Notes under the pieces: generated by a model
What the model saw: only the letters and a program-made list of their open reading frames with translations
Database searches by the model: none
What the model was told of the DNA's origin: nothing
Shown: positions 37,816-57,446 of the stretch, piece by piece
How the letters are laid out: each line of letters starts with the position of its first letter
How positions within the stretch are numbered: the stretch's first letter is position 1
NCBI GenBank assembly: GCA_902529885.1
Contig: CABZYC010000002.1
Coordinates: 1 to 59,611, forward strand
Length of the DNA: 59,611 bases
Reading direction: 5' to 3'
Source of the DNA: an uncultured Candidatus Woesearchaeota archaeon
GTDB taxonomy: Archaea > Nanobdellota > Nanobdellia > Woesearchaeales > GW2011-AR9
Program-made: the position numbers and the translations under genes

Positions 37816-37816
37816 T

Positions 37817-38041: not shown

Positions 38042-38148
38042 CTTTTCCTCTTGCTTATCGCTTTTTATTTCATCCCATAGGGGAGGATTACTTGTTAGAT
38101 TAGAAATAGTACTTATAAAGATGTTAAGTGTTTGTCCAGTATGACGCG

Positions 38149-39555: not shown

Positions 39556-40557
39556 TCATTGACCAAAGGTGTAATATTCGTCCTCCGAAGGAAATGAAAG
39601 ATAGACATGATCCATAGTTTTACTTATGTTCAATATATTATTACAAAATGTAATAGTTGTTTCACAGTTTAAATCAGCTAATGAATAAGAGTAAGTGTTA
39701 ACTATTTTATCAGAATAGCTTGATGATACAGACACTGTACTCGGGGATACCCTTACTTCTTCAGTAAACTCAGTTATAGTAAACGTTTCATCTGGGTTTC
39801 GTACTAAAATATTGTTCTCTTCAACCTTTATTGTTTTTGGTAAATTTGCTTCGTTGACATGAAAATCTATCTCAACACCCCCAATCATTAAACATACTGT
39901 ATTCAATGAGTGGCCGCACACATCCACTTGGGAACTTAAACAACCATAATAATCAAACAAACTTTTACATGAATCATGCCCTGATGATAATCTTCCGTTT
40001 AATTCGTCAAAATTGATTTGGTCCAATTCAAAATCGTAAGGCAATATTGCTGTATTCGTATCATCTAGCTTGTAGGTAATCTCCCCAACTAAGTCCTGGC
40101 CCATAGATACACTTATTGAAGGACAATTTACAGGGGTCCTAACAGCGTATGTTCCACCACCATAACCATCAGGACTTGCATCAAAATCCACTGTTGATGT
40201 TTGTTCTGTTACAAACGCGTCTTCGCACATGGACATAACAGGTTCAACCAAATTAACCTGAACCTCCGTAGCTTGCAAGGCACACCATTCCTGATCAAAA
40301 AGTATGGGGAGTTCACCGTTGACCCCACACAAACTAATCTCTGTGTTGACCAAGGAATCCTCTTGAATTTTATCTTGCATCTCTATCGCCCATAACCTGT
40401 GCCCGGTTATCACTGTCTTCATGAAAAGTGAATGGTCAGGAGCAGTGTCGGTCTGACCACTAACTTCATAAGATATATTTCTTAATTCGGCTGCAAGAAA
40501 TAATATACTAGCAAGTACACTAATGAGTGCAAAGCTCATTAGTAAACCACGTTTCAC
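39556..40557 (-). CDS. class III signal peptide (prepilin-like) secreted protein, 333 aa, Cys-containing
   Basis: GTG start. N-terminus MKRG|LLMSFALISVLASILFLAA. The start overlaps the upstream stop (GTGA). Confidence 0.6.
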   Translation of the reverse strand: MKRGLLMSFALISVLASILFLAAELRNISYEVSGQTDTAPDHSLFMKTVITGHRLWAIEMQDKIQEDSLVNTEISLCGVNGELPILFDQEWCALQATEVQVNLVEPVMSMCEDAFVTEQTSTVDFDASPDGYGGGTYAVRTPVNCPSISVSMGQDLVGEITYKLDDTNTAILPYDFELDQINFDELNGRLSSGHDSCKSLFDYYGCLSSQVDVCGHSLNTVCLMIGGVEIDFHVNEANLPKTIKVEENNILVRNPDETFTITEFTEEVRVSPSTVSVSSSYSDKIVNTYSYSLADLNCETTITFCNNILNISKTMDHVYLSFPSEDEYYTFGQ

Positions 40558-40886
40558 TTTTTTACCCCCACAATACTCTCACCGTAACGTACACCCCTTA
40601 AATCCGATGGGCACACACCCAAAGTTGAGTCTCCCCTTGATTTACTTGTTACCATCATGGTGTTAACATCACAAGTGTAAACTGTCTCTAAGTGTTCCCC
40701 TTTAGTATTTATTAAAACGAATGAAGACGATATTTCTTCATAATCTCTAAGAACATTGTCCAAACTATGCTCTTTCATTTCAACAATTGAGTCTGTAGAC
40801 AACCCGATTACCATCCACATTAAAATCATCAAAATGATCATGACAATACTATCAATAGTAAAACTGAAAATAAAACCGCGCTTCAT
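40554..40886 (-). CDS. class III signal peptide (prepilin-like) protein, 110 aa
   Basis: N-terminus MKRG|FIFSFTIDSIVMIILMILMWMVIGL. ATGA overlaps at both ends. Confidence 0.6.
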   Translation of the reverse strand: MKRGFIFSFTIDSIVMIILMILMWMVIGLSTDSIVEMKEHSLDNVLRDYEEISSSFVLINTKGEHLETVYTCDVNTMMVTSKSRGDSTLGVCPSDLRGVRYGESIVGVKK

Positions 40887-41350
40887 TTTAACCCTGGTGA
40901 CCCCGTCACCCTTACATACCGCGGTATTAGTTTCCCATCAACATAAATGTTTGTTAAAAGAGTAATTGTCTCTAATTTGTACCGTACAAAATTGCTTGTT
41001 TGCGCAGAATGTTCTATTGTCTCACCATCGTTCGCTAATACTTCTACTAATACAGAAGGATACTGTTGAGGTATCCTTGGATCATTATTAATGCACACAT
41101 CTAAATTTTCATTAGTAAGCCGATCGAGTTCAATGCTGTTTGGCACAACAATCTTATCTTCATAAGCAACACATCTTGGTTCAGAAGTTATACGGTCATA
41201 CATCAAAGTTAAATCCATTTTGAACGGCTCTTGTGCAATTGCATCACGATAGTCTGACACCTTGCTTACTTGATAAAAAAGTATACTCCCACTTATGAAT
41301 ACCCCCATGAACACAATCATTATTAAAGCAAGTATGTTCCCTCTCTTCAT
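40883..41350 (-). CDS. class III signal peptide (prepilin-like) protein, 155 aa
   Basis: N-terminus MKRG|NILALIMIVFMGVFISGSILFY. ATGA overlaps at both ends. Confidence 0.6.
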   Translation of the reverse strand: MKRGNILALIMIVFMGVFISGSILFYQVSKVSDYRDAIAQEPFKMDLTLMYDRITSEPRCVAYEDKIVVPNSIELDRLTNENLDVCINNDPRIPQQYPSVLVEVLANDGETIEHSAQTSNFVRYKLETITLLTNIYVDGKLIPRYVRVTGSPGLK

Positions 41351-41745
41351 GATTCACACTCCATTAATTGAATTAGGTTAGATTCACGACTGATGCATAA
41401 CTTACTGAAATTGGTCGCCGTTCCAACCACTGAAATATGTTCTGGAATGTTCATCTTTGTAGAGTATGAAAATGTAAGATATCCTGATTCTGTTATTCCA
41501 ACCTTATCATCAATCAAAGACACAGTATAATTCTTTGTATCCGATAAATCAAAAGATACGTTCTGATCAAACGGGAAAGAAGCAACAGAATATACAATGT
41601 ATCTTACTTGGTTAGCAATAAAAATTTGGTCAATAGAACTACTATCAACCAATTGTATTACAACGTACCACGATAAAATTGCAATTGATACAATCATAAT
41701 TGTGATCACCATTTTTGGTTCTACTAGTTGTGTTCCTTTTTTCAT
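41347..41745 (-). CDS. class III signal peptide (prepilin-like) protein, 132 aa
   Basis: N-terminus MKKG|TQLVEPKMVITIMIVSIAILSWYVVI. Confidence 0.55.
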   Translation of the reverse strand: MKKGTQLVEPKMVITIMIVSIAILSWYVVIQLVDSSSIDQIFIANQVRYIVYSVASFPFDQNVSFDLSDTKNYTVSLIDDKVGITESGYLTFSYSTKMNIPEHISVVGTATNFSKLCISRESNLIQLMECES

Positions 41746-41754
41746 TCATACACC

Positions 41755-41826
41755 TTAATTCCTATCATCAAACTGAGCCATCTGCTTATCGTGGTCAGTG
41801 CCACCCATCTCACCTGGGATATAATC
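41755..41826 (-). repeat. 72-nt direct repeat copy 1 (3' end of paralogue A)
   Basis: 69 of 72 nt are identical to 42656-42727. Identity drops sharply beyond that. Confidence 0.9.
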
Positions 41827-42654
41827 CATCTCAGTAGTTTGTAATGTTTGGTCGGTATAATCGCCATCATCAAAGCGTTTATGATATTGGTATACGTAAA
41901 CTGTTCGATCATTATTATCAGAACTAACATACACAGTTCTACGACGAGAAAGAATTTGGTTATTTATTGCTATACCTTTCTGATTTTCCTCATCATAGTC
42001 TAAATCATAGACATATTCTCTTGTTGCTAATCGAGCTAAACCACGCTCAATAGCCCACCCGTTTGAAAATTCATAAATCTGTTTATCACCATACACACCA
42101 GAATATTCAATATGGAACCCTAAATCGTTAAAACAACGTGCATTATCATCTGACAATATTATGTTTTCACCAGATTTACTAACTTCGAAATCTTTCATGT
42201 AACACAAACAGTTATCTTTACAAGTTGAAGGGACTGCTATCTTGACTAGAATTCCGTTATTACTTGCAAAACTGCAAGCTAACCAAGTTGCACCTAAACT
42301 TAACCATTTCCAATTCCCTACATCATCCCAGCAGTCGTCCTCTGCAACATCTTCATAATTCAAATATTTTGCTGATTCATATTTAAGATATTTCATATCT
42401 AAATTTTCACTACTATCTTCAAAAAAAACAATGGCGCTAGGGTGATCAAGTATAACAATGTGGGCACGTTCACGTTCATGCTCGCCCTCACTTGATTCCA
42501 CTAAAAATTCTTGGAACTTGTCAAACCCGTACATACTTTCATCATGGAGACTGTACGCAATCAATAAACTTACAACAAGTACAAGCAACGCTATCAAAAC
42601 GTCACCTAAATGAGCCATCATCCATGAAACTTGCCCTTTCTTTCCTACTTGCAT
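41755..42654 (-). CDS. class III signal peptide (prepilin-like) protein, 299 aa, paralogue A (start at internal ATG 42654)
   Basis: N-terminus MQVGKKG|QVSWMMAHLGDVLIALLVLVVSLLIAYS aligns with the paralogue upstream. The ORF-track extension to 42891 overlaps that paralogue and reads repeat sequence in another frame. Confidence 0.6.
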   Translation of the reverse strand: MQVGKKGQVSWMMAHLGDVLIALLVLVVSLLIAYSLHDESMYGFDKFQEFLVESSEGEHERERAHIVILDHPSAIVFFEDSSENLDMKYLKYESAKYLNYEDVAEDDCWDDVGNWKWLSLGATWLACSFASNNGILVKIAVPSTCKDNCLCYMKDFEVSKSGENIILSDDNARCFNDLGFHIEYSGVYGDKQIYEFSNGWAIERGLARLATREYVYDLDYDEENQKGIAINNQILSRRRTVYVSSDNNDRTVYVYQYHKRFDDGDYTDQTLQTTEMDYIPGEMGGTDHDKQMAQFDDRN

Positions 42655-42655
42655 A

Positions 42656-42727
42656 TTAATTCCTATCATCAAACTGAGCCATCTGCTTATCATGGTCAGT
42701 GCCACCCATTTCACCTGGGACATAATC
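42656..42727 (-). repeat. 72-nt direct repeat copy 2 (3' end of paralogue B)
   Basis: 69 of 72 nt are identical to 41755-41826. It encodes ..PGEMGGTDHDKQMAQFDDRN plus the stop. Confidence 0.9.
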
Positions 42728-43459
42728 ATGCTCTGTTGACTGCGATGTTTCATCAAACAAATTTTCTCCATCTGTCCGTTTCTGAAACTGGTACACGTAC
42801 ACTGTTGAATCATCTTGGTCATAACTGATATAAACTGTTCTTCTCCTGGCTTGTATTTGGTTACTAATTGCAGCACCCTTAGAATTTTCATCTAATTCAA
42901 CATCGTACACCTCATCATTATCTGTTACTAGCTCAGCTAATCCCCTCTCAATCAGCCATCCATTTCTCAGATCATAAATATCTTTATCACCGTACACTGC
43001 AGAAAAACTTAATGGGAAACCAATATTATTGTAACATTTAGCTTTATCTTCACTTAAAGTTGTGTAAAGGCCACTTGTACTTACCTCAAAATTTTTCATA
43101 TAACACAAACAATTTTTATCACAAACTGATGGTACTTCAACCTCAATTTGACCAATATATTGATTAAGATAGTCAACCCCATCAAAGGAATTATATGAAT
43201 AAATTAAGTTCTGCTTACCTTCAAAATAAACAATAGCGCTAGGGTTATCTAAAATGACAATATGAGCATGTTCACGTTCATAATCCCCTGAATAAGAATC
43301 TTGTAGCACGTCATGAAAATCATCAAAACCAAAAAAACTTTCATCATGAAGACTGTAACTTAACAATATACCCATGGTTACAACAAATAAGGTTAATAAT
43401 ACGTCCCCTAAATGTGCAGTCATCCATTCTATCTGTGCTCTTCTCAAAATTAATCCCAA
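42656..43459 (-). CDS. class III signal peptide (prepilin-like) protein, 267 aa, paralogue B (TTG start; alternative TTG at 43447 gives MRRAQ...)
   Basis: N-terminus ..LILRRA|QIEWMTAHLGDVLLTLFVVTMGILLSYS. The C-terminal 20 aa are identical to paralogue A. Confidence 0.6.
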   Translation of the reverse strand: MGLILRRAQIEWMTAHLGDVLLTLFVVTMGILLSYSLHDESFFGFDDFHDVLQDSYSGDYEREHAHIVILDNPSAIVYFEGKQNLIYSYNSFDGVDYLNQYIGQIEVEVPSVCDKNCLCYMKNFEVSTSGLYTTLSEDKAKCYNNIGFPLSFSAVYGDKDIYDLRNGWLIERGLAELVTDNDEVYDVELDENSKGAAISNQIQARRRTVYISYDQDDSTVYVYQFQKRTDGENLFDETSQSTEHDYVPGEMGGTDHDKQMAQFDDRN

Positions 43460-43465
43460 TCACCA

Positions 43466-43711
43466 TTAATCGTCATCGTCATCATCACCAGATGACCTGT
43501 CGCATTTTGAAGTGTCACTAGTATCTGTGTCCATCTGATCAGGGATCCCATCACAATCTATATCTCTTGTAACTGCATCAAAACCTTGATTAAACCCATC
43601 TTTACCTTTACCTATGCTTCCAACTGAAAAGCCTATTAAAAGAAGTAAAATTATCACTGCTAACACCCCAAAGATGATTATCATCCATACTGCATCATTC
43701 CCTCGTTTCAT
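43466..43711 (-). CDS. class III signal peptide (prepilin-like) mini-protein, 81 aa, with acidic Asp-rich Ca-binding-like tail
   Basis: The internal ATG at 43711 forms ATGA with the upstream stop. N-terminus MKRG|NDAVWMIIIFGVLAVIILLLLIGF. Tail: DIDCDGIPDQMDTDTSDTSKCDRSSGDDDDDD. Confidence 0.6.
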   Translation of the reverse strand: MKRGNDAVWMIIIFGVLAVIILLLLIGFSVGSIGKGKDGFNQGFDAVTRDIDCDGIPDQMDTDTSDTSKCDRSSGDDDDDD

Positions 43712-44796
43712 GAAAATTTCTCCGCGTACGTTTCCACTTGACAACCCGCATTATTAGCACCGGTTAATGAATCCAATACAATATAACTATAATATCTCTG
43801 TGTCATCAAATCACCGTTATAAAATTCAGTTTTAGCGTCAACCTCAATATTATTCTCTATCTTACTCCCATAATACCAAACAGCAGCAAGCCCACCTACA
43901 ACCAAGAATGCACCTACTACACAGCCCACCCCCGTAGCACATGCACCTACACCCGCAGCTACAGTTGAACTACCAGCAGCGGCAGCTGCTGTGGTAGCGG
44001 CAGCAATTGTAGAATAAGTTACAGCTGCACCCACACCTATCGCACCCACACCAGCTAATAATTTAGCAGAATCCCATAAATATTCAGGTGGTTCGTAATG
44101 GTTCTTACTAAAATACAAAATTGCCATAACATCTTCATTACGTATTGGTTCTTGGATCATGAAAACAGTCTCACCACCAAACAACCCACCACCTTGCAGA
44201 TAATCAATATATTTTATCCCCATCCTAGGACTTTCTTCAGCTGAAATGAATTCGTGCATCTCCCATGCATTTATCATCATGTTTTGGCTTTCATTGTTAA
44301 CAAATTCACTCAAAGAAACAGTTGCACACAGAAAACAGTGTGGATCATCAGAATTCCACCCCAATACTTGGAACGCTTCATCCTTAACACTTGTGAAATA
44401 GTCGTCTTGACGTGCTTCGTTCATCATGTAACGACATTCAACCATCTTCTCTGCAATCATGTGCATAGCCTTCTCCTTCATCAAAAGGTCCGCACCATCT
44501 TTATCAAACGTTTTCTGTAGCCAGACCCAAATCCCTTTATCAGGATACAATATTGAATCCACTGTGTTACATAGGACAGGTGCCCAACTTACTTCTACAC
44601 AATTACTACCATCATCTGAACATTCAGATGTTGCTATCGAACTTGATAGTCTTGACTGTAAACTTGTACGGCATATAGAAACAGGGCTTCTATCTTCACC
44701 AAGTTCAAGTAAAGGAATTAAAATTGAAAGTACTGCGCCAATAGCAATTATTGTTAAAATCATTAAACCTAATGATTGCACTTGACCTCTTCTCAT
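43708..44796 (-). CDS. class III signal peptide (prepilin-like) protein, 362 aa, with C-terminal Gly/Ala-rich hydrophobic segment; paralogue of 44835-45827
   Basis: N-terminus MRRG|QVQSLGLMILTIIAIGAVLSILIPLL. The G/A/V-rich stretch is at residues about 246-310 (nt 43867-44061). Confidence 0.6.
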   Translation of the reverse strand: MRRGQVQSLGLMILTIIAIGAVLSILIPLLELGEDRSPVSICRTSLQSRLSSSIATSECSDDGSNCVEVSWAPVLCNTVDSILYPDKGIWVWLQKTFDKDGADLLMKEKAMHMIAEKMVECRYMMNEARQDDYFTSVKDEAFQVLGWNSDDPHCFLCATVSLSEFVNNESQNMMINAWEMHEFISAEESPRMGIKYIDYLQGGGLFGGETVFMIQEPIRNEDVMAILYFSKNHYEPPEYLWDSAKLLAGVGAIGVGAAVTYSTIAAATTAAAAAGSSTVAAGVGACATGVGCVVGAFLVVGGLAAVWYYGSKIENNIEVDAKTEFYNGDLMTQRYYSYIVLDSLTGANNAGCQVETYAEKFS

Positions 44797-44805
44797 GTAA
44801 TATAG

Positions 44806-44822
44806 ATGTTGTAATAAATAAA
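44806..44822 (-). promoter_or_regulatory. A/T-rich TATA-like element upstream of 43708-44796
   Basis: The minus strand reads gcctTTTTATTTATTacaacatctatattacATG. This lies in a 38-nt gap, one of the larger intergenic gaps in the array. Confidence 0.3.
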
Positions 44823-44834
44823 AAGGCTTTCGGT

Positions 44835-45827
44835 TTACTGCTCTTTACAACCAATATGTTGAACTGTTTCCATGTCATCTAGTATAAAATACCCATATGT
44901 CCTTGTATCAAGCATCCCCTCTGAACCATAGAAATATTCTGCTTTGATTTGAGAATTATAATTGATTCTGCCAGCAACTAGCCCTGTAGCAACAGATCCA
45001 CCTACAGCACCAACAACAACCGTAGTTATACCAACACAAGCAGGGGCGGTAGCTAAACAAACCAATCCACCGACTGCACCTATCGCAGCACCAGCCACAC
45101 CATAACTTAAACCAACTTCTGCCACTTCCATTATATCAACGGGGACACCCCCATCACTATTTCGACCCAAATAGCTGATCCCATATAACCCATCATTAAC
45201 TATATCTGTTGCAATCAGATATGCACCTTCGCCACCAAGGTTCCCACCCCCATTTAAGTAATCTGAATAAGTTATACCCTGAGATAATTCTTCATTGAGT
45301 AAGAATTGATGGAATTCTTGCGCAGTAATAGTATAATTCAATTCCTTGACTGCCACACTATAACAAGTAAAACATTTTGGTTTGTTTTCATCAAAACCGA
45401 ACAATTCCCAAAATTCGCTTCCTAAATTTGAAAAAACATCTTCATGCCGGTTATCTGTAAAAGTATATTTGCATGCTGCCAAAGACTCAGCAAATTTACG
45501 CATGACACTTTCTTTTTGACCTTCTTCTATTCTATCTTCAGTAAAAATTATACTTGAAAACCACGCATCTTGGTATATTGCAGAAGGAGTGAATTTTAGA
45601 TCTTGCTTTCTACAAGATAAACCTCCAAACGAAAACGTATTCTCTTCAGTAGTCTGCGCGGATGTTAACACCCTATTTTCTATTGAAGAACGACACATGT
45701 TCTCAATAGATTTATCGCTCATGTACCCAAAAGATTCCATCATAAAACCTAACATTGCAATCATGGAAAAACCAATCAAAAGTATGCCTGCTAAAATAAA
45801 CATTACGTTTGTTTGCGCTCTCATCAT
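44835..45827 (-). CDS. class III signal peptide (prepilin-like) protein, 330 aa, with C-terminal Gly/Ala-rich hydrophobic segment
   Basis: N-terminus MMRA|QTNVMFILAGILLIGFSMIAMLGF. The G/A/V-rich stretch is at residues about 236-286 (nt 44970-45122). ATGA overlap with the upstream gene. Confidence 0.6.
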   Translation of the reverse strand: MMRAQTNVMFILAGILLIGFSMIAMLGFMMESFGYMSDKSIENMCRSSIENRVLTSAQTTEENTFSFGGLSCRKQDLKFTPSAIYQDAWFSSIIFTEDRIEEGQKESVMRKFAESLAACKYTFTDNRHEDVFSNLGSEFWELFGFDENKPKCFTCYSVAVKELNYTITAQEFHQFLLNEELSQGITYSDYLNGGGNLGGEGAYLIATDIVNDGLYGISYLGRNSDGGVPVDIMEVAEVGLSYGVAGAAIGAVGGLVCLATAPACVGITTVVVGAVGGSVATGLVAGRINYNSQIKAEYFYGSEGMLDTRTYGYFILDDMETVQHIGCKEQ

Positions 45828-46840
45828 CCGTTACACGTAGGAATTATGCTATAATCCTCATTCCCAACAATACATTTATTCCAAGCACACCCTTCCCCAG
45901 GAGTCTTACCACTTGTATACCCTTTAGGTGTATGGCGGGGAAAATCATTAGTACCCACATATGAGCCAAAATCATCCTCAAACATTTCATCAATTGCATC
46001 AGGATGAAATCCACAATGATCATAGCTTTCTGCAGAAGTTGGACTATCATATGCAGGTATTATACAGACATATCCTTTTTTGGGACTATAAATCCAGTCA
46101 CCACTGCCAGTATCCCAAAAATCACCTAGTGCGCCCACTTCTAGTTTATAAGGTTCTTCCCCATCAAGTATACCGTCCACCACCATATAATCTTCATCCT
46201 TGTCGCTCCCTGAATTTAAAATATAAGTCCATTGATTAGTCTCATCATTATGCGTCCACCCTTTCCAATCTTGGTAAGTCATATCTTCACCTAGATCTAG
46301 TTGTTCCCAATACCAATTATGAAAGTTTTCTGCATATTCATCACCGTGACTATCAGTACCACCAACAGAACATAACACTAATCCCGGAATATTAAAAGTA
46401 TCTTTATGTTGCTGACCAATTAATGTTTGTATCCTCACCCCTGACTCAAAAGTAGTTGATGCCTCAGATTCAATAAACTTGATTGTTAATAATTCCTCAG
46501 TTAAACCAGACGGGTTTGGTAACCTATACATACAAGGTGTGTCATCACCATATCTGTATCCACCACTATATTCTCTATCCCTTACATGAGATAATGTTTT
46601 GTTTAAATCGTCTAAATACTTTCTTAGATCCCCAGATATTTTTGTGCTTGAAAGAGCTAAATTGGTGTATTGCCTTTGTGTTTCGGATAAAGTCTGATTC
46701 ACATTTCCTACAACATCCATGATACTATGTTCACCCTCACTCATAGTGTCACCAACAAAACCCTTTATTGTAAGGCCAGTTACACTACAAAAAATTAGTG
46801 ATACTAAAATTAACCAAAGTCCGGCGGCACCACGTCTCAT
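45824..46840 (-). CDS. class III signal peptide (prepilin-like) protein, 338 aa, Trp/Asp-rich
   Basis: N-terminus MRRG|AAGLWLILVSLIFCSVTGL. ATGA overlap with the upstream mini-ORF. Confidence 0.55.
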   Translation of the reverse strand: MRRGAAGLWLILVSLIFCSVTGLTIKGFVGDTMSEGEHSIMDVVGNVNQTLSETQRQYTNLALSSTKISGDLRKYLDDLNKTLSHVRDREYSGGYRYGDDTPCMYRLPNPSGLTEELLTIKFIESEASTTFESGVRIQTLIGQQHKDTFNIPGLVLCSVGGTDSHGDEYAENFHNWYWEQLDLGEDMTYQDWKGWTHNDETNQWTYILNSGSDKDEDYMVVDGILDGEEPYKLEVGALGDFWDTGSGDWIYSPKKGYVCIIPAYDSPTSAESYDHCGFHPDAIDEMFEDDFGSYVGTNDFPRHTPKGYTSGKTPGEGCAWNKCIVGNEDYSIIPTCNG

Positions 46841-46971
46841 CCAACAAGCGTCCTCTGGGTTAGATCACCCATCCCATTATGGAATTTATATAATAATCCT
46901 ACGCCTACAAAAACAAAAAATAATACTATTAAAAGAACCACAATGTACCAAAAAACTTCACCACGTTTCAT
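46837..46971 (-). CDS. 44-aa mini prepilin-like ORF (not in ORF track)
   Basis: Hand translation: MKRG|EVFWYIVVLLIVLFFVFVGVGLLYKFHNGMGDLTQRTLVG. The start overlaps the upstream stop (TAATG) and the stop overlaps the next start (ATGA). Confidence 0.5.
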   Translation of the reverse strand: MKRGEVFWYIVVLLIVLFFVFVGVGLLYKFHNGMGDLTQRTLVG

Positions 46972-47084
46972 TATATTATTGCTTCCTTTATTCGGTTCAA
47001 AAATAAAATACCAAAAACAATGATTGCAATTATCAATAATAAGTATGCAACCAATGTCATACCTGGCATTTCACCTTTCTTCAT
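46971..47084 (-). CDS. 37-aa mini prepilin-like ORF (not in ORF track)
   Basis: Hand translation: MKKG|EMPGMTLVAYLLLIIAIIVFGILFLNRIKEAII. TAATG overlaps at both ends. Confidence 0.5.
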   Translation of the reverse strand: MKKGEMPGMTLVAYLLLIIAIIVFGILFLNRIKEAII

Positions 47085-47335
47085 TAATTAGCCTCAATAC
47101 CTAAACAACATAACTGGCCCGTTCCACATTCAAAAGAGGATACTACCGATCCATTCAGAACTTTACATGCTTCTTTACTAGCTTTACATTCGCCCCCAGC
47201 AACTTCGCAACCACTAATACCTTGTTCCAAAACCGTTGTTTTACCTGTGAACATAAGTAGGAGGACCGCTAGGACCACTAAAGCTATCACCGCTCCAATA
47301 ATGATCCAAAAAACGTTTGCTTGTCCTTTTTCCAT
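47084..47335 (-). CDS. class III signal peptide (prepilin-like) protein, 83 aa, Cys-rich C-terminus
   Basis: N-terminus MEKG|QANVFWIIIGAVIALVVLAVLLLMF. C-terminus: CEVAGGECKASKEACKVLNGSVVSSFECGTGQLCC. Confidence 0.6.
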   Translation of the reverse strand: MEKGQANVFWIIIGAVIALVVLAVLLLMFTGKTTVLEQGISGCEVAGGECKASKEACKVLNGSVVSSFECGTGQLCCLGIEAN

Positions 47336-47343
47336 CTATCTAC

Positions 47344-47685
47344 CTAATCCCAATTACAACCGTAACTTTCACAGTTCGCTTCTGAATCTCTACCATCGTT
47401 ACATTCATCTGCACGATCGTCAATAAACTCTAACGCTTCCAACTGTTCACTGTCTTCACCGTCACCCCATAAATTGTAGAACTGTTGTTCATCTGCTAAA
47501 CCAGGATGACATTTCCCAAACATGATTGATAATGCTTGATACCGTGCACCTGCCTCTTTTGGTACTGTATCATCGAATGACCCTAACCTACCAATAAAAA
47601 TAGCAGTTAATACTACTAAAACAATTAATGCTAACGCCGCAATAATAATTACATTTAACGACATCCCTTGCGCTCTTTTTACCAT
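47344..47685 (-). CDS. class III signal peptide (prepilin-like) protein, 113 aa (start taken at MVKRAQG)
   Basis: N-terminus MVKRA|QGMSLNVIIIAALALIVLVVLTAIFI. The ORF-track start at 47721 adds 12 residues. Confidence 0.55.
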   Translation of the reverse strand: MVKRAQGMSLNVIIIAALALIVLVVLTAIFIGRLGSFDDTVPKEAGARYQALSIMFGKCHPGLADEQQFYNLWGDGEDSEQLEALEFIDDRADECNDGRDSEANCESYGCNWD

Positions 47686-47739
47686 AATTTCACCATCTAT
47701 TAATGTAAAAAATGGAAACAACGTATTTAAAATTTGTTG

Positions 47740-48249
47740 TTAATCACATATAATTAACATTGTTTGCGCTAATAAGTTATTACCTTCACCTAGATTTAGG
47801 CTAAACATTCCGCTACTATCATAATCCCTACTACGCATACAATCTTTACTTTTTATTTGGTAAAACAATTCTGGGTCACTACCCACACTTGTTTTGTACA
47901 CACGAAGTTCGTAATGTTTCCCCCATTGTAACACAGTCTCGTCCAACATTTTACTTGATTTATCTACAAACAACTCACATGCGTCTAGCTCACTATCACA
48001 AGTGTTACTGTCACCACCCGCCATTATCAAACAGTCTTCCAATATTTGTTCACCCATACTCATTGCCTTAGTCCTACACTCCACTTCAGTGTTAAGTATA
48101 GCGCTCATGGTACTGTAAGCTAACCCTTTACGTACAAACACACTCTTATCTGTCTCAGAATCAATTGCAAACTTTGCAAAAAATAAAAAGCCAATACTAA
48201 TCATTATCACAATTATCACCATCCCAATTATTTCTTGTTGACCCCTCAT
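47740..48249 (-). CDS. class III signal peptide (prepilin-like) protein, 169 aa
   Basis: N-terminus MRG|QQEIIGMVIIVIMISIGFLFF. ATGA overlap with the upstream gene. Confidence 0.6.
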   Translation of the reverse strand: MRGQQEIIGMVIIVIMISIGFLFFAKFAIDSETDKSVFVRKGLAYSTMSAILNTEVECRTKAMSMGEQILEDCLIMAGGDSNTCDSELDACELFVDKSSKMLDETVLQWGKHYELRVYKTSVGSDPELFYQIKSKDCMRSRDYDSSGMFSLNLGEGNNLLAQTMLIICD

Positions 48250-48815
48250 GAATATGCCTCCACATGAATATATCCATACCCAAACTCGCCGTACACAGTC
48301 TGGTTACTACTATTAAGCCCAAGGTTGTTCCGTAAGGTTATCACAAAAAATGTTGGTTCTTTATCTGCAGGTACTTTCTCACCATTCTCCAAAGTTACAG
48401 TTTTTACCTGTTCATACACAGTCCAATTACGTTTTTCAGGATAAATTTGGTGAACATAAATTCCGCTGTACCCAAACATGTCAAAATAATAGTCTTGTTT
48501 ATGACTATCAATAAACTGTTCAATACCTCTCAATTTTTGTATATCCATACAATTGTCTACTGATTCCGATTCACCGTTACTACAATATAACTCAGATAAA
48601 AATAAAGCAGTTAAACTAATATCTATTGCTTGCTGAGCAAGCATCTCTGTTTCTTGTTCTTGCAAACTGATTTGTTGATATTTAAAAAAAAATATTATAC
48701 CGAACACTACTAAAATGAAAAATATGAACATGGTCACTAAACTTTCCATCATTTGCATTTGAGCTTTAGTATACACGCGTGCACCCCGCTGCCGAAAGTT
48801 CTTGGTTAAGATCAT
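48246..48815 (-). CDS. probable class III signal peptide protein, about 189 aa (start uncertain)
   Basis: The ORF-track start at 48860 is TTG. ATG at 48815 gives MILTKNFRQRGARVYTKA|QMQMMESLVTMFIFFILVVFGIIFFF. ATG at 48758 would avoid the overlap with the upstream gene but loses the basic region. Confidence 0.45.
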   Translation of the reverse strand: MILTKNFRQRGARVYTKAQMQMMESLVTMFIFFILVVFGIIFFFKYQQISLQEQETEMLAQQAIDISLTALFLSELYCSNGESESVDNCMDIQKLRGIEQFIDSHKQDYYFDMFGYSGIYVHQIYPEKRNWTVYEQVKTVTLENGEKVPADKEPTFFVITLRNNLGLNSSNQTVYGEFGYGYIHVEAYS

Positions 48816-49869
48816 ATATTTTTGTTGCTTGGTCTCGTAAAGTGAATTGACCACACGCAAGATAATTAGTGGTACACTGTTGCGCAGCCAAACTTAATGT
48901 CCGATACATAGTAGAATCATCTTTCAAAATTGATAAACAATCTGCATATTCTTCTCTACTTTCATACGCGCCAACCATTAAGTCAACTTTATCTTGTAAC
49001 ACTTCGGACACTAATGACAACCGTTTAAACGCCTTCATCATGTTACACCTAAACGTTTCAGCGTTGCCAGCAAACAAAGCTGCGTAAGCAACTGCATCAC
49101 GTTCAGAACCCGTGCTTACTAAGGGTGTCCATTCACCTTCATTACCACCTTCAACGTACCAAGCATCCCCGCGTTTCACATAGTATAACACTGCGCCATC
49201 ATGAAAGCGTACGGCGCTCACTTGATCATTGTTTAGTACAGAAAGTTCTAATGGCACCGCTTCTTCGTGTTCTATAAAAGGTATCCCGGACTCTAACAAA
49301 ATGAGCCTGACGTGATACTCACCATTATATTCTACTTCCCCTACATTATCTATGAATTCAACGTTTAACCCATTCGTACTGTTCATAAGTTCAATGTAAA
49401 AATCGCTTGACCCATCACTAACAACATAATATTTAGTATTTTCACTCGTAACAAACAAAAAGTCCATCACTTTAAACGGTAATTTGTAAGGCATACTCCA
49501 TAAGATCATTTTGTTCGTCTTAACATTTAATGGGGCGACTACTACAGATAATGGACTTTCAATACTTGCAGAAGATCCACTAATACCATAATAACTAAAC
49601 ACATCATATATCCCGCCGGCTTCATCAAGCTCACAACGAAATTGAAACACTTCGTTCCTTACACCTGATGTGTCTAGAAAATTTTTAGTATTTTCTGCAA
49701 CCGTAGACCCAGTGAAAATATTTTCAAGGATGTTCATCACTTTATAATTCAAACGTTTCTCAGACATTTCTTTTTGCTGAGTTATTATCATTATAAAAAA
49801 AAGTAAAATGGCCGCACCAGCCACCATGACATAAATCCAATTAAATTGTACTGTTACCTGGCCTTTCAT
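48766..49869 (-). CDS. class III signal peptide (prepilin-like) protein, 367 aa
   Basis: N-terminus MKG|QVTVQFNWIYVMVAGAAILLFFIMII. ATGA overlap with the upstream gene. Confidence 0.6.
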   Translation of the reverse strand: MKGQVTVQFNWIYVMVAGAAILLFFIMIITQQKEMSEKRLNYKVMNILENIFTGSTVAENTKNFLDTSGVRNEVFQFRCELDEAGGIYDVFSYYGISGSSASIESPLSVVVAPLNVKTNKMILWSMPYKLPFKVMDFLFVTSENTKYYVVSDGSSDFYIELMNSTNGLNVEFIDNVGEVEYNGEYHVRLILLESGIPFIEHEEAVPLELSVLNNDQVSAVRFHDGAVLYYVKRGDAWYVEGGNEGEWTPLVSTGSERDAVAYAALFAGNAETFRCNMMKAFKRLSLVSEVLQDKVDLMVGAYESREEYADCLSILKDDSTMYRTLSLAAQQCTTNYLACGQFTLRDQATKIYDLNQELSAAGCTRVY

Positions 49870-50363
49870 TCGTATACCAATTGACTTAAATATGCTGCGT
49901 CACCACGACCTTCTAACCTCAAAGTAAATTTGCCATTCTCTAAAGGTAAACATAAATATCCATCGTCCATACGAAGTTTGTACGTTTTAATTGCTGCAGC
50001 TGCAGGTGGGTCCAAAAACACGTTTTGGTCAGCAGCGCCCCATGACCCAGCAGTTTCCCATGCGTCACAAGCTATCGCACTTTTAGCACATAATGACTCG
50101 TCATACGTTGCATCCATATCTACAAAACAAATTTCTGTGTATTTCACAGGTAAACTGAAATCTAATGTTCGCGCTGCACCATAATCACTGTAAATCTTCT
50201 TGACATTATTCTCAAGGTTAGTTTTAAACTGCATGAACTCCACCATTTCTCCCTTCTCCATCAAATCGTTCACCATGTTAACACCAAATATAAGTATAAA
50301 TGCAAAACTTATACCTGCAATCATGTAAATGAATACTTGTTGTACCGCCATCCCTCGTTTCAT
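49866..50363 (-). CDS. class III signal peptide (prepilin-like) protein, 165 aa
   Basis: N-terminus MKRG|MAVQQVFIYMIAGISFAFILIFGV. ATGA overlap with the giant gene's stop. Confidence 0.6.
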   Translation of the reverse strand: MKRGMAVQQVFIYMIAGISFAFILIFGVNMVNDLMEKGEMVEFMQFKTNLENNVKKIYSDYGAARTLDFSLPVKYTEICFVDMDATYDESLCAKSAIACDAWETAGSWGAADQNVFLDPPAAAAIKTYKLRMDDGYLCLPLENGKFTLRLEGRGDAAYLSQLVYE

Positions 50364-53300
50364 TTTGATAACTTCCTTAATTTTTTGAATACTTCGTTCG
50401 CATCTTTTGCGTTAACTTCATTCTTTTTATGTGCACTACTCAAATTCTCAAGTTTATCAAACAAATTTGTATCAACCTGTTTTTTAATTTCAGGTTTGTT
50501 TGCTTCAAAATGTTTTGTTACTTCCGCTACTTTCTTGTGCACTGGAAGATCTTCGTGCGCAGTCCGCATTAAGTGTTCAACACTTTTTTTAGCAGTGAAA
50601 GACGAAAATAATTTTGATCGAGAACTTTTTTTAGTACGCTTACTAAAGTTTTCTTCTAAGCTGCGTAGTCGGTCACCAACACTCACTTTCTTTTGTGTTA
50701 ATGGTTGAGCTTTTGACTGTGAAACATTCGGTTTCATAGATTTTGGATTGGCCATTTTATTTTGTGGGGAGACTTGCCTTGACTGAACCTGTTTGTTGTA
50801 CAAAGGTTTTGAACCAAACAGTGCTCTTCCTTGAGGCATCTGAGTATAAAAGTAGCTTAAGAATCCACTTGAACCACCCATCATCAATAAAGATAATAAT
50901 AATACAATTATTGCACCAAGATTATCGTTCGGTGAAGAAGATGATGATGAAGGGATATCCAATACTTCTGTTTCGACCACAGGTTCAGTGAATGTGTCAT
51001 CAATACAAGGGTCTTTACCTGCTTGGTACTCTTCCAGATTGTTTAAACCGTCACTATCAAAATCTTCGTCAGTATCAGACACACCGTTCATATCAGTATC
51101 TAAAGCCTCGTGGTCCAATTCACAGCCAGGTGCAGTACTAAGTTTTTCCCAGCTGTCTGGTAACCCGTCACCATCAGTATCAGTTGTATCAGATGTTTCT
51201 TGACGAGCACAACCAGTACTATCAACCTGTGCACCTGCACTTGTTTCAGTACAAATGTCACATTGGTCAGCTACACCATCACCGTCAACATCTTCAAACT
51301 CAATCTTCTGGTTACCGGTAACATTGTTCCCTTTAGTGTCAGAAGCAAAATAACATAACCATTGGTTCTGTTCTACAATTATGCCCGATTGTTTATCTTG
51401 GGTAGGGTCACAATCAGCAATAGAAGTACTAGTCCCATACAAAATATCGTCGCAGCCAGCGTCATCACTACATTCAAGGCTTATTACTGAGCCCATACAC
51501 TGTTGAGCTTGAGTCACAACTTGAATATCTGGGCCAAAAATGTCCATTGCACAATCTTCGCTGCTACCGTCACCAGCAACAAAACCGTCTGTATAAACAT
51601 ATTCCCCTACGTTACCTGCAGAATCAACAGCTAACACTTCAATGTAATATGGTGTCCCATTAACAAGAGTCACACCTTCAATGTCTGCAGTAAGATTTAA
51701 TGTTCCTGACGAAATTAAGATTGTATCAGTAGCATTTTCAAGTCCAAGGTACTCCCGTAACTGGCTTGAACCGGGACTGTTTCCTTGGTAAAGGTTATAC
51801 TCATAATGGCTTATGTTTGGTTCGTTAACAGTTACAGATAATGGGACAGTATGTAATCCACAACTTTCCTCACCATCATTCGTGCTTGTTATAGACGGAG
51901 GTGTTTGGTCAACATAAAATTCGATTGTATCATCATCATAGTTCTCTGATATTAAACAAGATACGATATAATGGTACGGATCATTACTCTCAACAAGGTC
52001 ACCAATGTATTTTGTGTGCACTGTGTTCCCTGAAACAGTGAAATCTTCACCGTCAACTTCACATAAAGCGTTCTTACTAGTTTGGACTTCTAACGTTACT
52101 TCTTTCCCATCAATTATGCCAGTTGGACTCATTGATTCAATGTAACCCACTACTGCATAATCAACAGAGAAATCTATTGTTTCTTGATTACTTACTAACC
52201 CCGCACCATTCTCACACTGTACCGCTAATGTGAAGTCAGCAGTAGCACCGTCAACATCAAAACTGTATTCACTAACGTGTGTTGTGTTCAAAATGTTGTC
52301 GTCATACCCTTCAAAACTATAACGCATATTTTCGTAATCGTAACCGTCATTAGTTACATCGTCAAACTTACAAACAGTTTTATCGTCTGTGGTAACAGTT
52401 AATTGTACCGTCCGCATGTCCGTCACTAATTCTGGTTCCACGTTAGTTGTAAGAATAATTGGTTTTGAAGGATCGTACTCCAAATTCATTTTTTGGGCAG
52501 GGCCAACTTCACCAAGCGGATCTTTACATTTTACATACAACGTTTTTTTACCACCATCTTCGTCATAAGCAGCTAACACGTCCCCAGGGAAATCTTCGTA
52601 CAAATAATAATTAGTTTTATCTTCGTACAAATCAAACTTTTTATATTCTGGTTGAGAATCAAAATCAAACTCAGGATTGAAATCGTAGGTACAAGCTTCA
52701 GTGTTAAGTTTACTCATTATGACCCAATCAAAAACAGGGTCAGAACTTACCCCGTACTGTTCACCACCATAATAATAAAGTTCAGGTAAAACCATGTTTA
52801 TACCAAATCCTTCAACAATAATCTCTCCACATTGTACGTCTACAAGGTTTTCCACTGTATCAGTTGAATAATAACACATCCTCGTTGTGTTTGTAATAGT
52901 GACAGTACCTGAATACACTTCATATTTTTCGTCACTCCGACTCTCGCACCCTTCACCAAAACAGTAAAACGTCTCTGCACAATCAAAACCTTCTGCAGAA
53001 CATTCAAAGTCTATATTCACTGATTCAATCCAGTATAATTCCCATTCATCCCCAACCGGTAATTCTTCACGGTCACCCTCCGTCAAAATTGCTTGCGTGT
53101 CAGGCGCAGTAAAGTCTACTACGAAATCAAAATAATCTTCCATTACTTCATCTGTATAACTCTCAACACATACAGCTTTCAAAAAGCCAGCATAGTCACC
53201 CTCATAAAAATTAGGTATGCTACTTGTACTATGATTCTTATTTTCGTCATCACTCGTATAAAACTCAGCCAATTTTGTCCATGCAACACCGTCATTAGTC

Positions 53301-56300
53301 TCATAGAGTTCACAACTTGCACCCACTGCAGTCGATATTTGAAACACAATGTCTGTCTCGTGCACTGCACCGCCAAATTCAGGGTATACAAAAGAGATAT
53401 CTTGTTCTAAATCGAACACTATTGTGTCTGACACATTGTTAATGTTACCATGGTCGTCAGTACACGAAGCAGTCAAATTATAAATTACGCCTGTCAACGA
53501 TGTGAAATAGTGTTCTTTATCCTCATCACGAGAGAATGATACTGTCTGAGTGTCACCTTCAGGCAACTTCTGTTCTAAAATAAAGTCACACTCAGCAGGT
53601 TCAGAAGGTTCTGTTAAATATACAGTTAACTCACTAATATCTGCGTCCGTATCACTATAATAATTCAATACAAAATCTGGGTTTTGTGTATCAACAAAAA
53701 CGTAAGTTGTTTGTAAATCTTCACGATTATAATATTTGTCTTCTGCTAAATAATATAATGTGTATGTGTCACCAGCCTCTATCACAGACTGTAAATATGT
53801 GCTATTAACCAAATTAATTTCTGCAGACTCAGAATTGATTATCCCAGAGTATTCATAATAATCAAAATTGTCTTCAGTACAACCACTAGATTGTGATGAG
53901 GTTAAACAGTAGTATAAGCCGGTCACCGGACTTATATCGTCTACAGAAGACAAGTTTATTGAAGGAAAACTGTTGCTTACAACTGCAAAACTTCCTGTGT
54001 TAATCTCAGTTATTGGCCCCTCATTATCTATCTTACACGTTTCATATTCTCCTGCAGAAAATTCGTCACAATCATTATAAGAATCGTAGTTCCCATCTTT
54101 ATAACATTCACCGTGCGTTTCGTTCGCTGCGTACCAATAACATGTTCCCCAACTACACTTGTCATTACTATTGAAAATGTCCATGTCAATACTAGACACA
54201 GGTACACCCCCAATACATTCAAGTTCGCTTGTATACTCATAACAATTTGCGTCTTGTGAAGGTGAATCACCACAATCGTTGCAAACACTATTATTAGTAT
54301 CACTAAAACACGATCCTAATTGATCACACACATCAGGAGTACAATACATGTTCTCAAATAATTGGCTGTCGGGACCACACAAATAACATTGGTCATCTTC
54401 AACATAATCTTGTGGTGCGCAATATCCTGTACCAAACTCTTCAGTGGTAGGATACAATACAGGGGAGTCATAATACGTATTATCACTCTGGTTCACCCAA
54501 AGGCAACCTTGCCCTAAACAATTATCAATCTCGCAAGAGTCTTGGGACCTATAATCAAAACAAGTTTGTACTTCATTACAATCAATACAATCGTCCACAA
54601 TTGTGTCACTATAATCATAATAACAAAAGTTCAAGTATCCAGTCTCGTTATCATAATCCCCATAACATGTTGACTCTTCATAATATAAACCAAACGGTGT
54701 AGCTAACATTGAGTCAACATTACACATTCCTGCATCTTTACAAATTGCGTTCGTTTCACCAATAATGGTACAATAATAATCTGTTGAATCTGTGTCAAGC
54801 TCAGAACAATCGTTACTTAACACCACATAATTTTCATCGTCACACGCATAGATCAATTTTCGTTCATTATCATCCGTAGTACTATCGTCAATACCACAAA
54901 AAAATTGTGACTCTTGAATATTATCACATTCCTTATCACCCGTTAACACAGTGATAGAAATTTGTTCTGTACTAATCCTTGTTTGAGGTGCACCAGCATC
55001 ATCCGCAGGACCGTCTGTATAGATTGCTTCCAATGCATAAGTGTACGAAGTTTCCCATTCAACATCATAATCAATATAGGTTCCAATGTACGGGCTTATA
55101 ACTCCTAACTTCACACCGTCTTTATACAAATTATACCCGTCAACTTCAGGACAAGGTTTTTCCCAAGACAAAAAAACTGCTTCCATTCCACGTTCTACTG
55201 ATGATTCAAAGACTTCAACAGGTTTTGTAGCGTTAGGTTGCCCATAACTACATTCGCCAATGTAACGTGAAAGGATAATGTCATAATCAAGTTCAGTAAT
55301 ACCTTCATCAACATTCAATGTTAAATCGTCAACTGAATAATCCTCAAATATAGCACTTATATTGTATGCTCCTGGTTCAAGATAGATTTCAAATGTACCG
55401 TCTGGGTACTCACTACTTTCTTTAAAAATATCGTTCACATAAATTTTAGCGCCGAATACAGGGTCAAGCACACTTAAATCACCCATTGTGTCCAAATAAG
55501 TTACGCCTTTCACTCCTTGAAACTCAATCTCTTCTAGAATAAAAGTGTCATAAAAATCCGAGTCTAATGAAAGGTCATATTCAAGGACAGTGTGATAACT
55601 TTTACTCAACGTTAAAACGTGTTCGCCAGTGTTCACATCAGTAAATTCGAAAAACCCGTCAGTATCAGTACTAACCTGGACGGTATCATTACCTTCTAAT
55701 GTTACTGCAACTTGCGATAATGGTTCACCATCAATGTCAGTTATTAAACCACTCACTGTATGTTCACCTAAGCTCCGGACAACAACATATTCTAATTCTA
55801 ATGTTTCGCCATCAAGAACGGTTATAGTATCACGGTAAGTACTATACTCTTCAGTTGTGATGGTTAATGTATAAGTGTTAGGTAATACATCATTAAACTC
55901 AAAATAGCCTGTGTCTGTAACCTCGCTACCATCATTAAGCATAATAGTAAATTCTACATCTTCACCAGACTCATTTTGGACAGTACCAGTTATTGTGGAA
56001 GTCTCAACTTCATACCCACAAATGTCTACACTACAGTATGCTGCATCAACATTAATGGTATAACTCATGCTTGATTCCTCAAGACCTTGCTGTTCTGTAC
56101 GTGACACACAATCGTTCCTAAAATCTACTAATGAACAAAAATCGCCAGTCCGACAACAACCAGGTGTACACCATTGTTCATACATATCATCTGTAACTTC
56201 AACGCCGCCTTCATACTCACACAATAAATAAGATGTATAATCGCAAGATACACTACATAATACTTCTTCACATTCATCAATTGTATCACAACTTATACCT

Positions 56301-56494: not shown

Positions 56495-56510
56495 ATTAAT
56501 AAGAATTTAA

Positions 56511-56520
56511 TGTTTATAAA
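56511..56520 (-). promoter_or_regulatory. TATA-box-like element (TTTATAAACA) 17-26 nt upstream of the giant gene start
   Basis: The minus strand reads aatcTTTATAAACAttaaattcttattaatgtGTG. It lies in the 28-nt gap after the preceding stop. Confidence 0.4.
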
Positions 56521-56522
56521 GA

Positions 56523-57446
56523 TTAGTTCCGTTTACGCCGCAATATTGCACGTAACTCTTCTGTTCGACGGATACGTTCAATTGCATTTAACTGGTCTCG
56601 CGTCTTAATCTGTGGTTTAGGTGGACGATGACCTGCCCGTGCAATTGTTGGTTTAAGAGGTTTAGCTAAAGGTTGTGATGGGCGAACATAGCTTCTTCGC
56701 TTTTTAGGTTGTGGTGCCCGATATTTTTTAGGGTTAACTTTCATCGTTACTGCTTTTGAATTGTACACACCTTTTGGTTGTTGTGACCCTTTCAATGCCA
56801 GATATAAAAAAAGTAGTAATGCGCCTAACGCGACAGGAACGTAAGGAAAAGTTACAGGGTCACCTTCAATACTATTAAGTTTGGTTATTGTATTGTTACT
56901 TACATTACTTTCTTCAGAAATGCTTGAGTTCACAATATAATTGATTAAAGGGTCACCTGTAGCCACGTAATCAATTTCGTCTTTCTGTACAATCTCATAA
57001 TCTTTTGCAGTGTTACAATCACATTCACCCTGACTATAAGAATATAATTCTGTACCTTCAGTTTGCGCTTGTATAATACAATCAAACTCTGTACTTAATT
57101 CTGTGCAAGTCTCTTCTGTTTGACAACAGCCAGTTTTACAACTATCTTTTGTAGCAATACCGTAATCGCACATTCCACGAACGTTGAGGGTACAAGTGTC
57201 TTTACAAACAACTAATTGACATTCATCTAATATTGTACAAGAATCACTGTATAAGTATACGTCATCTAACACTTTTCCTGTATACTCCGCTTCAGTTAAA
57301 GCTTCATTCAACGTTAATTCACTACAATAAGCCGCACTTTCTTTGTCAACGTAGCATCCAAGGCCGCTAACTAGCGGAACCACAAACACCATCAATACAA
57401 ACACCGTCAAGGGTACCTTTACCATCCACATCACACCAGTTTCCAT
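56523..57446 (-). CDS. 307-aa Cys-rich type I membrane protein sharing the giant protein's N-terminal module
   Basis: Signal MVKVPLTVFVLMVFVVPLVSG|LGCY (alternative ATGs at 57431 and 57425). Cys module at residues about 30-145, TM at about 200-220, and a Pro/Lys/Arg-rich tail. Confidence 0.7.
   Translation of the reverse strand: METGVMWMVKVPLTVFVLMVFVVPLVSGLGCYVDKESAAYCSELTLNEALTEAEYTGKVLDDVYLYSDSCTILDECQLVVCKDTCTLNVRGMCDYGIATKDSCKTGCCQTEETCTELSTEFDCIIQAQTEGTELYSYSQGECDCNTAKDYEIVQKDEIDYVATGDPLINYIVNSSISEESNVSNNTITKLNSIEGDPVTFPYVPVALGALLLFLYLALKGSQQPKGVYNSKAVTMKVNPKKYRAPQPKKRRSYVRPSQPLAKPLKPTIARAGHRPPKPQIKTRDQLNAIERIRRTEELRAILRRKRN

Follow-up and report, generated by a model that had tools for sequence, protein, structure and literature searches.

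The question raised by the 59,611-nucleotide stretch of DNA analysed here (positions 1 to 59,611 of the forward strand of contig CABZYC010000002.1, from an uncultured Candidatus Woesearchaeota archaeon; hereafter the window) is what purpose an internal hydrophobic segment serves in the products of two adjacent genes, A and B, which already carry the hydrophobic N-terminal helix of a type IV pilin-like protein. A and B belong to a cysteine-rich family of type IV pilin-like proteins that lacks any annotation, and each is made up of a leader, an N-terminal helix, an alpha/beta head domain and a hydrophobic insertion. The insertion forms a hydrophobic hairpin that is conserved, although some members do without it, and it is probably embedded in a membrane. 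It is tentatively proposed, at somewhat less than even confidence, that the membrane in question is the cell's own and that the hairpin runs alongside the N-terminal helix, where it would serve as a second anchor and make the protein a base or anchoring subunit of a pilus-like structure. The label 'pilin-like' is used on account of the N-terminal motif, the predicted structure and the gene neighbourhood.

A first-pass annotation, made from the sequence alone, had described A and B as a paralogous pilin-like pair with a C-terminal, glycine-zipper-like hydrophobic segment; the observation is confirmed by the present analysis and the interpretation is partly supported. The two proteins align over their full length by BLASTP (26% identity, E 8e-26), which bears out the paralogy, and the shared blocks ECRY/ACKY...R.(D/E)D.F, P(H/K)CF.C and Y.DYL.GGG..GGE are present as described, those of A reading ECRY..R.DDYF, PHCFLC and YIDYLQGGG..GG. 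A further block, given as C.TS...R, occurs in A (CRTS...R), whereas B reads CRSS...R. The pilin-type N-termini were also correctly recognised, the leaders MRRG and MMRA each being followed by Gln and hydrophobic residues (MRRG-QVQSLGLMILTIIAIGAVLSILIPLL in A and MMRA-QTNVMFILAGILLIGFSMIAMLGF in B). The hydrophobic run behind each leader spans about 25 residues, which fits class III signal peptides, and the N-terminal helix reaches a Kyte-Doolittle hydropathy of 2.8 in A and 2.67 in B, with apparent insertion free energies of -3.7 and -3.3, respectively. The stretch itself has, in both proteins, the uncharged G/A/V/T/S-dominated composition claimed for it (Table 1), its coordinates having been right for A and two codons too far for B (45122, where 45116 should stand), and the conserved tail with a terminal 'GC' is present in each. 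Two arms flank a pair of cysteines in the insertion and comprise 40 and 19 residues in A, where the hydropathy reaches 2.15, and 19 and 22 residues in B. The first arm of A (residues 246-285) owes its unusual length to an Ala/Thr run, AAATTAAAAAGSS, which is replaced or 10 residues shorter in homologues at 80-88% identity and is a low-complexity expansion added onto the conserved hairpin.

The family was recovered by an index-free HMMER profile search of 1.84 billion cluster representatives, which gave 239 clusters when the limit was set at E <= 1e-3 and 123 when it was E <= 1e-10, most of them 260-340 residues long; 136 of these proteins make up the family alignment. When A, B or the 136-member alignment served as query, word-indexed homologue searches each returned at least 5-8 proteins, and the family emerged only from the profile search; the word-indexed runs for A and for the alignment had probably been swamped by low-complexity words. 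Neither A nor B matched Pfam (E <= 1) or NCBIfam (E <= 0.1), no Pfam family is common to the 136 members, and searches of PDB sequences with the family profile and with isolated hairpins gave chance matches only. A literature search, limited in its coverage, retrieved no description of the family or of any pilin-like protein with an internal hydrophobic hairpin. Six cysteines are each conserved in 129-136 of the 136 members, the head contributing five (133-136) and the tail a single one (C352, 129), and the motifs A..MARCWWMFGEGRY, N.CF.CY and TYLDYIQSYGGPG recur across the alignment. A strict test for [KR][GAS] followed by a hydrophobic helix is passed by 105 of the 136 members; most of those failing it look like mis-called starts, and the consensus leader of the 136 reads MxxKKG with a hydrophobic helix behind it. 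Curated class III signal and archaeal pilin/archaellin N-terminal profiles matched neither A, B nor any of the 136 members, although such profiles are short and lineage-specific, so that the missing match weighs weakly against pilin membership.

Relatives were found in 223 Genome Taxonomy Database (GTDB) species genomes, and the titles and neighbourhoods considered below are those of the 80 loci listed of the 223. Woesearchaeota, Nanoarchaeota, Pacearchaeota, Iainarchaeum, an unclassified archaeon or 'Methanosarcinales' are named in the titles of 79 of the 80, the sole other title being Saganbacteria, for one short contig. Many metagenome-assembled genomes (MAGs) that carry the gene cluster around the family gene are titled 'uncultured Methanosarcinales' (loci L006, L007, L010, L012, L013 and others); this is probably a labelling error, since their genes are arranged as in Woesearchaeota and their RadA shares about 72% identity with that of the window. 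The family is confined almost wholly to DPANN archaea. Most of the fetched loci hold one copy of the family gene. Two adjacent copies are confined to the window and its close relatives L001 and L002 (partial), with L008 as an independent case. A and B represent a tandem duplication, specific to their lineage, of a gene that normally occurs once. In the fetched loci the gene always lies within the same pilin-like cluster, in which a giant protein is followed by pilin-like proteins of 165, 367, 204, 169, 125 and 83 amino acids and then by the family gene; further pilin-like genes come next, and after them RPA, YdjM and RadA. This order is kept in both Woesearchaeota and Pacearchaeota loci.

The predicted structure bears on where the stretch lies in the protein. 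AlphaFold2 gave an unusable model of A from a 12-sequence alignment (predicted local distance difference test score, pLDDT, of 35) and a usable one from the 136-sequence alignment (pLDDT 76.4; predicted template modelling score, pTM, 0.73). In the latter the N-terminal helix spans residues 4-34 (pLDDT up to 97) and continues over residues 38-52, and the alpha/beta head, mostly at pLDDT 80-96, contains strands at residues 79-83, 154-162, 210-214, 223-229 and 337-343. The last of these strands (pLDDT 87-91) comes from the tail, beyond the stretch, and rejoins the head, so that the stretch is an excursion between the last two head strands, with both of its ends predicted to lie on the head side. 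Members without the stretch retain the tail, which fits an insertion. The 'C-terminal' placement in the first-pass annotation is accordingly corrected: a conserved tail of 44-51 residues follows the stretch and, in the model, folds back into the head. A C-terminal sorting signal (PGF-CTERM or similar) was likewise ruled out by this conserved, folded tail. Foldseek comparison of the A model with PDB and BFVD returned nothing below E 3, pilin or other. The head accepts domain insertions at two loops; a TPM domain occupies the hairpin site in P0152, and Cys-rich modules of 30-100 residues stand directly before the TYLDYIQ motif in P0108, P0124, P0125, P0136 and P0150.

A stretch of at least 30 residues is present in 114 of the 136 members (median length 48) and in 64 of the 87 family open reading frames (ORFs) of the fetched loci and the window, with lengths from 30 to 144 residues. 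Its internal architecture is conserved too, and it is more than chance low complexity. Across the family it is composed of A (22%), G (21.5%), V (14%), T (10%), L (9%), I (8%) and F (2%). Cysteines within the stretch number 0, 1, 2 and 4 in 40, 7, 66 and 1 members, a pair bracketing the turn in 58%, and the corresponding counts are 26, 1, 36 and 1 in the family ORFs of the species genomes, a sample largely independent of the first; over the whole protein, 41 members have six cysteines and 67 have eight. The pair stands in the middle of the stretch, 5 or 7 residues apart, in forms such as CxTGxGC, ChhAEPC and ChhGTGGxC, and some members without cysteines have a P-x-G-W turn in its place. The turn between the arms comprises 5-7 residues, typically Gly, Thr and Pro. 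For the two arms that the pair separates, the median lengths are 19.5 and 21 residues, and both flanks are acidic, with a mean net charge of -1 within 12 residues. The best 19-residue window has a median Kyte-Doolittle hydropathy of 2.0, in keeping with the membrane-type hydrophobicity that had been suggested. In L018, L021, L032, L037 and P0056, Ala/Thr-rich inserts of up to about 100 residues directly follow the Cys-bracketed turn.

The proposed glycine-zipper character was not borne out by the spacing of the glycines. Family-wide, Gly-Gly pairs at spacing 3 (GxxG) and spacing 4 (GxxxG) are depleted (z -7.1 and -3.1), while those at spacing 7 and spacing 5 are enriched (z +4.7 and +2.9), and small residues in general give z -1.6 at spacing 4. 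GxxxG occurs once in A against 2.2 expected, and five times in B against 2.5 +/- 1.3. Nor is a zipper spacing conserved in homologues, among which the stretch varies over the length range given above, with a 10-residue indel at 80-88% identity, and no Pfam Gly-zipper family was matched by A or B at E <= 1 or by any of the 136 members at E <= 0.01. A different regularity is seen relative to the Cys pair, where Gly peaks fall at -4 (52%), -11 and -15 in the first arm and at +1, +3, +10 and +15 in the second, with Gly-poor positions every 3-4 residues. The positional variance of Gly lies above that of all 2000 shuffles (z 9.2 and 4.9, scores that are inflated by shared descent). At spacing 2, large hydrophobic residues occur less often than expected (z -5.5), and a spectral analysis of hydropathy shows no power at 160-180 degrees. 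The resulting picture is one of two antiparallel helices packed via small residues in a roughly seven-residue register.

The arm lengths, the full exclusion of charge and the Kyte-Doolittle values would fit a helical membrane hairpin, for which the simplest and most likely place is the membrane of the cell itself, alongside the N-terminal helix. The arms would then be alpha-helices, packed tightly and antiparallel through their small residues in the seven-residue register, and would together form a marginally hydrophobic membrane hairpin, with both hairpin ends and the head domain outside the cell. Such a second anchor would keep the subunit at the membrane instead of allowing it to be extruded like an ordinary pilin, and A and B would be two diverged versions of it, possibly forming a heteromer. 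The inserts beside the turn are accommodated more easily by a loop than by a membrane-penetrating tip, which favours the own-membrane placement. A number of observations nevertheless weigh against it. Residues 238-313 of the A model, which include the stretch, are helical at a pLDDT of only 45-63, and about one quarter of the members are without a long stretch. The paired cysteines, present or absent as a unit, look like a disulfide, and with the hairpin ends outside and a full span of the cell's own membrane the turn would come to lie in the reducing cytoplasm, where a disulfide is unexpected. The turn is also without Lys or Arg and often contains Glu-Pro, contrary to the positive-inside rule. 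For the stretch, the apparent insertion free energy has a median of +1.5 kcal/mol, compared with -3.2 for the N-terminal helix, and the arms are far less hydrophobic than the Leu/Ile/Phe-rich anchors encoded by the neighbouring genes; being marginally hydrophobic, they might be translocated by the Sec machinery rather than inserted. Furthermore, no pilus ATPase, platform protein or prepilin peptidase was detected among the scanned ORFs of the window, a scan that reaches upstream only to 59601, and no ORF with a PilB/VirB11-type Walker A motif was found within 10 kb around the 80 related loci, where the sole matches were RadA.

Several of these features would be in keeping with a hairpin that leaves the cell together with the head and is carried, with its tip stapled by a disulfide, on a pilus-like structure, for example in a tip complex, from which it would enter the membrane of a partner or host cell. 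Such a deployable hairpin, which would anchor the symbiont or start a membrane connection (compare colicins, diphtheria toxin and type III translocators), is considered unlikely. In its favour, the even Cys counts argue for a disulfide and thus for a turn in an oxidising, extracellular environment, the turn is never positively charged, being either acidic or neutral, and the hydrophobicity is marginal, with Leu, Ile and Phe scarce. In this composition the stretch resembles segments that must cross the membrane of the producer before inserting elsewhere. The gene is single-copy amid many pilin-like genes, as expected of a minor or tip subunit, and the family is confined to DPANN lineages, which are described as cell-contact symbionts (PMC11291902). 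Both the filament and the place of the subunit in it are, however, putative, and the 60-100-residue inserts beside the turn in some members would hinder penetration. On the model, the family also appears to lack the amphipathic helical bundle which, in colicins, shields the hairpin in the soluble state, and proteins with two uncharged 20-residue segments are mostly ordinary integral membrane proteins. A more specific version, with a still smaller chance of being correct, would make the family the membrane-engaging subunit of a DPANN-specific pilus-like apparatus, whose disulfide-stapled hairpin would travel out on the filament and enter the membrane of the host, anchoring the symbiont or starting a connection through which lipids and metabolites are acquired.

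The stretch may also have no part in a membrane: hydrophobic and in part of low complexity, it would pack against other subunits, for example alongside the N-terminal helices in the core of a filament or within a ring, or would act as a flexible spacer; this explanation is as doubtful as that of a deployable hairpin. It would account for the wide range of lengths (30-144 residues), the 10-residue indel among close homologues, the quarter of members without the stretch, the TPM domain at the hairpin site of one member, the positive insertion free energy and the low model confidence. It sits poorly with the clustering of the arms at about 20 residues on each side of a conserved turn, with the fact that A and B contain not one charged residue over 49-66 positions, and with a Gly register held relative to the Cys pair. 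Spacers are, moreover, normally polar, and we know of no type IV filament with extra hydrophobic helices in its core. A canonical GxxxGxxxG zipper acting as a pore-forming or amyloid-like segment, for which the 21.5% Gly content and the GxxxG count of B would speak, is very improbable and already largely refuted by the depleted spacings 3 and 4, by the shortfall of GxxxG in A and by the missing Pfam match, and its variant, a beta-hairpin stem of a beta-barrel pore, is argued against by the lack of any period-2 alternation.

Among the closest described systems are the archaeal type IV pilin-like proteins with class III signal peptides, such as the minor pilins of Epd/Aap-type loci (Makarova, Koonin and Albers 2016, PMC4858521), a paper that describes other archaeal loci in which a run of pilin-like genes lies beside a large anchored surface protein. 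In common with such proteins, the family has a short basic leader that ends in [KR][GA] and is often followed by Gln at +1, and then some 20-30 hydrophobic residues. Several cysteines are conserved, the genes lie in a run of pilin-like genes together with a large anchored surface protein, and the model of A predicts a long N-terminal helix resting on a beta-sheet head. The family differs in that the A/B head matches no Pfam or NCBIfam family and no solved or viral predicted structure, in that no ATPase, platform or peptidase gene was found nearby (over the window and 10 kb around the 80 loci), and in the second, internal hydrophobic hairpin of A and B, for which no counterpart appeared in the literature searched.

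The D-region of bacterial type IVa pilins is a functional, adhesive region delimited by a disulfide. The insertion in A and B is similar in being variable, in its place between the last strands towards the C-terminal end of the head, and in having a cysteine pair. It is, however, an uncharged hairpin of 30-140 residues rather than a polar loop, and its cysteines are at the tip of the hairpin and not at the base. Colicin pore domains and TH8-TH9 of diphtheria toxin are membrane-inserting hydrophobic helical hairpins, with which the family shares two uncharged Ala/Gly/Val-rich arms, each some 20 residues long, a short turn in which acidic residues may occur, and marginal hydrophobicity. The family differs from these in having no bundle of amphipathic helices and in the Cys pair at its turn, and no sequence or fold similarity was detected. 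With the glycine-zipper segments of VacA, MscL and others it has in common a hydrophobic segment rich in Gly and small residues and a probable helix-helix packing, but the i/i+4 spacing is depleted in favour of the seven-residue register and no profile match was obtained.

Table 1. Features of genes A and B and of the surrounding cluster in the window (aa, amino acids; HMM, hidden Markov model).
Feature	Position	Strand	Evidence or remarks
Gene A, 362 aa, downstream copy of tandem pair	43708..44796	-	Family HMM 229 bits; orthologues at 77-98% identity
A residues 1-34, class III signal peptide-like leader (MRRG-Q) and hydrophobic helix	44695..44796	-	Motif, model
A residues 35-245, cysteine-rich head domain	44062..44694	-	C42, C76, C121, C154, C157
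A residues 246-311, uncharged Gly/Ala/Val-rich insertion, 66 aa	43864..44061	-	80% G/A/V/T/S, no charged residue
A C286-ATGVG-C292, Cys-bracketed turn (C-x5-C)	43921..43941	-	C292 invariant in close homologues
A residues 312-362, conserved 51-residue tail with strand 337-343 and C352	43711..43863	-	Conservation, model
Gene B, 330 aa, upstream copy of tandem pair	44835..45827	-	Family HMM 213 bits
B residues 1-34, class III signal peptide-like leader (MMRA-Q) and hydrophobic helix	45726..45827	-	Motif scan
B residues 238-286, uncharged Gly/Ala/Val-rich insertion, 49 aa	44970..45116	-	80% G/A/V/T/S, no charged residue
B C257-LATAPA-C264, Cys-bracketed mid-hairpin turn (C-x6-C)	45036..45059	-	Family Cys-pair pattern
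B residues 287-330, conserved 44-residue tail, terminal Gly-Cys	44838..44969	-	Alignment
Cluster of 19 co-oriented genes	39556..59601	-	Class III-like N-termini in 15 of 19; gene order conserved
2044-aa surface protein	50360-56494	-	80 cysteines, CarboxypepD_reg domains, C-terminal membrane anchor, Lys-rich tail
307-aa protein	56523-57446	-	Relative of the 2044-aa protein N-terminus

The cluster that includes A and B (Table 1) encodes about 17 pilin-like proteins together with an anchored, cysteine-rich surface protein of 2044 amino acids and a protein of 307 amino acids, and all 19 of its long ORFs lie on the minus strand. A class III start, M(K/R)(K/R)(G/A) followed by a hydrophobic helix, is found in 15 of these 19 ORFs, compared with 2 of the 41 in the rest of the window (Fisher p 8e-9). 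The 2044-aa protein is 35-47% identical to giant proteins at the equivalent position in Woesearchaeota loci and has an N-terminal Cys-rich module in common with the 307-aa protein (E 6e-8). A second tandem paralogue pair (41755-42891 and 42656-43459, minus strand) shows 51% identity (E 1e-104). Its 378-aa ORF overlaps the neighbouring one by 236 nucleotides, and the relative in L083 is called as 299 amino acids; the true start is probably internal, at a KKG-Q motif near residue 84. An 83-aa pilin-like protein with six cysteines (47084-47335, minus strand) scores 24.6 bits against Pfam Inhibitor_I68, for which the cut-off is 25, and both it and its 125-aa neighbour (47344-47721) are conserved in 37-48 related loci; the two are candidates for major filament subunits.

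The cluster is followed by RPA, YdjM and RadA both in the window (36886-39515, minus strand) and in many Woesearchaeota and Pacearchaeota genomes (L012, L013, L036, L046 and others), and this fixed chromosomal position implies vertical inheritance. The window has a G+C content of about 37%, archaeal housekeeping genes, an archaeal RNase P RNA (16993-17250) and a RadA that is 70-78% identical to that of Woesearchaeota MAGs, with matching gene order. These features mark its source as a Woesearchaeota-type member of the DPANN archaea. With regard to the upstream context, a sister contig of 68.9 kb ends within gene B, exact look-ups of a 744-aa protein and of the 307-aa protein gave no match, and a metagenome scan with the 744-aa protein gave none either. 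Elsewhere in the window (18369-19007, plus strand), a 212-aa protein consists of an adenylate/guanylate cyclase catalytic domain only (E 1.9e-11), and a lone cyclase-domain gene seems unexpected for this type of genome.

Woesearchaeota and their relatives are abundant, uncultured archaea with small genomes which are thought to live attached to other cells, and we know of no account of how cells of this type attach and exchange material. The cluster described here is a vertically inherited, near-universal set of pilin-like genes in these lineages, and it contains a single-copy family with a trait for which no described pilin-like protein gave a parallel, an internal hydrophobic hairpin, the turn of which is bracketed by cysteines in most members. 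The Cys pair, the Gly register and deletion of the hairpin offer targets for mutation. If the hairpin is a second anchor, a base subunit of an undescribed archaeal surface structure would have been identified, and if it enters the membrane of a partner, the family would represent a candidate host-contact device. The A/B family is thereby a candidate for a part in building or anchoring the surface apparatus of these symbionts.

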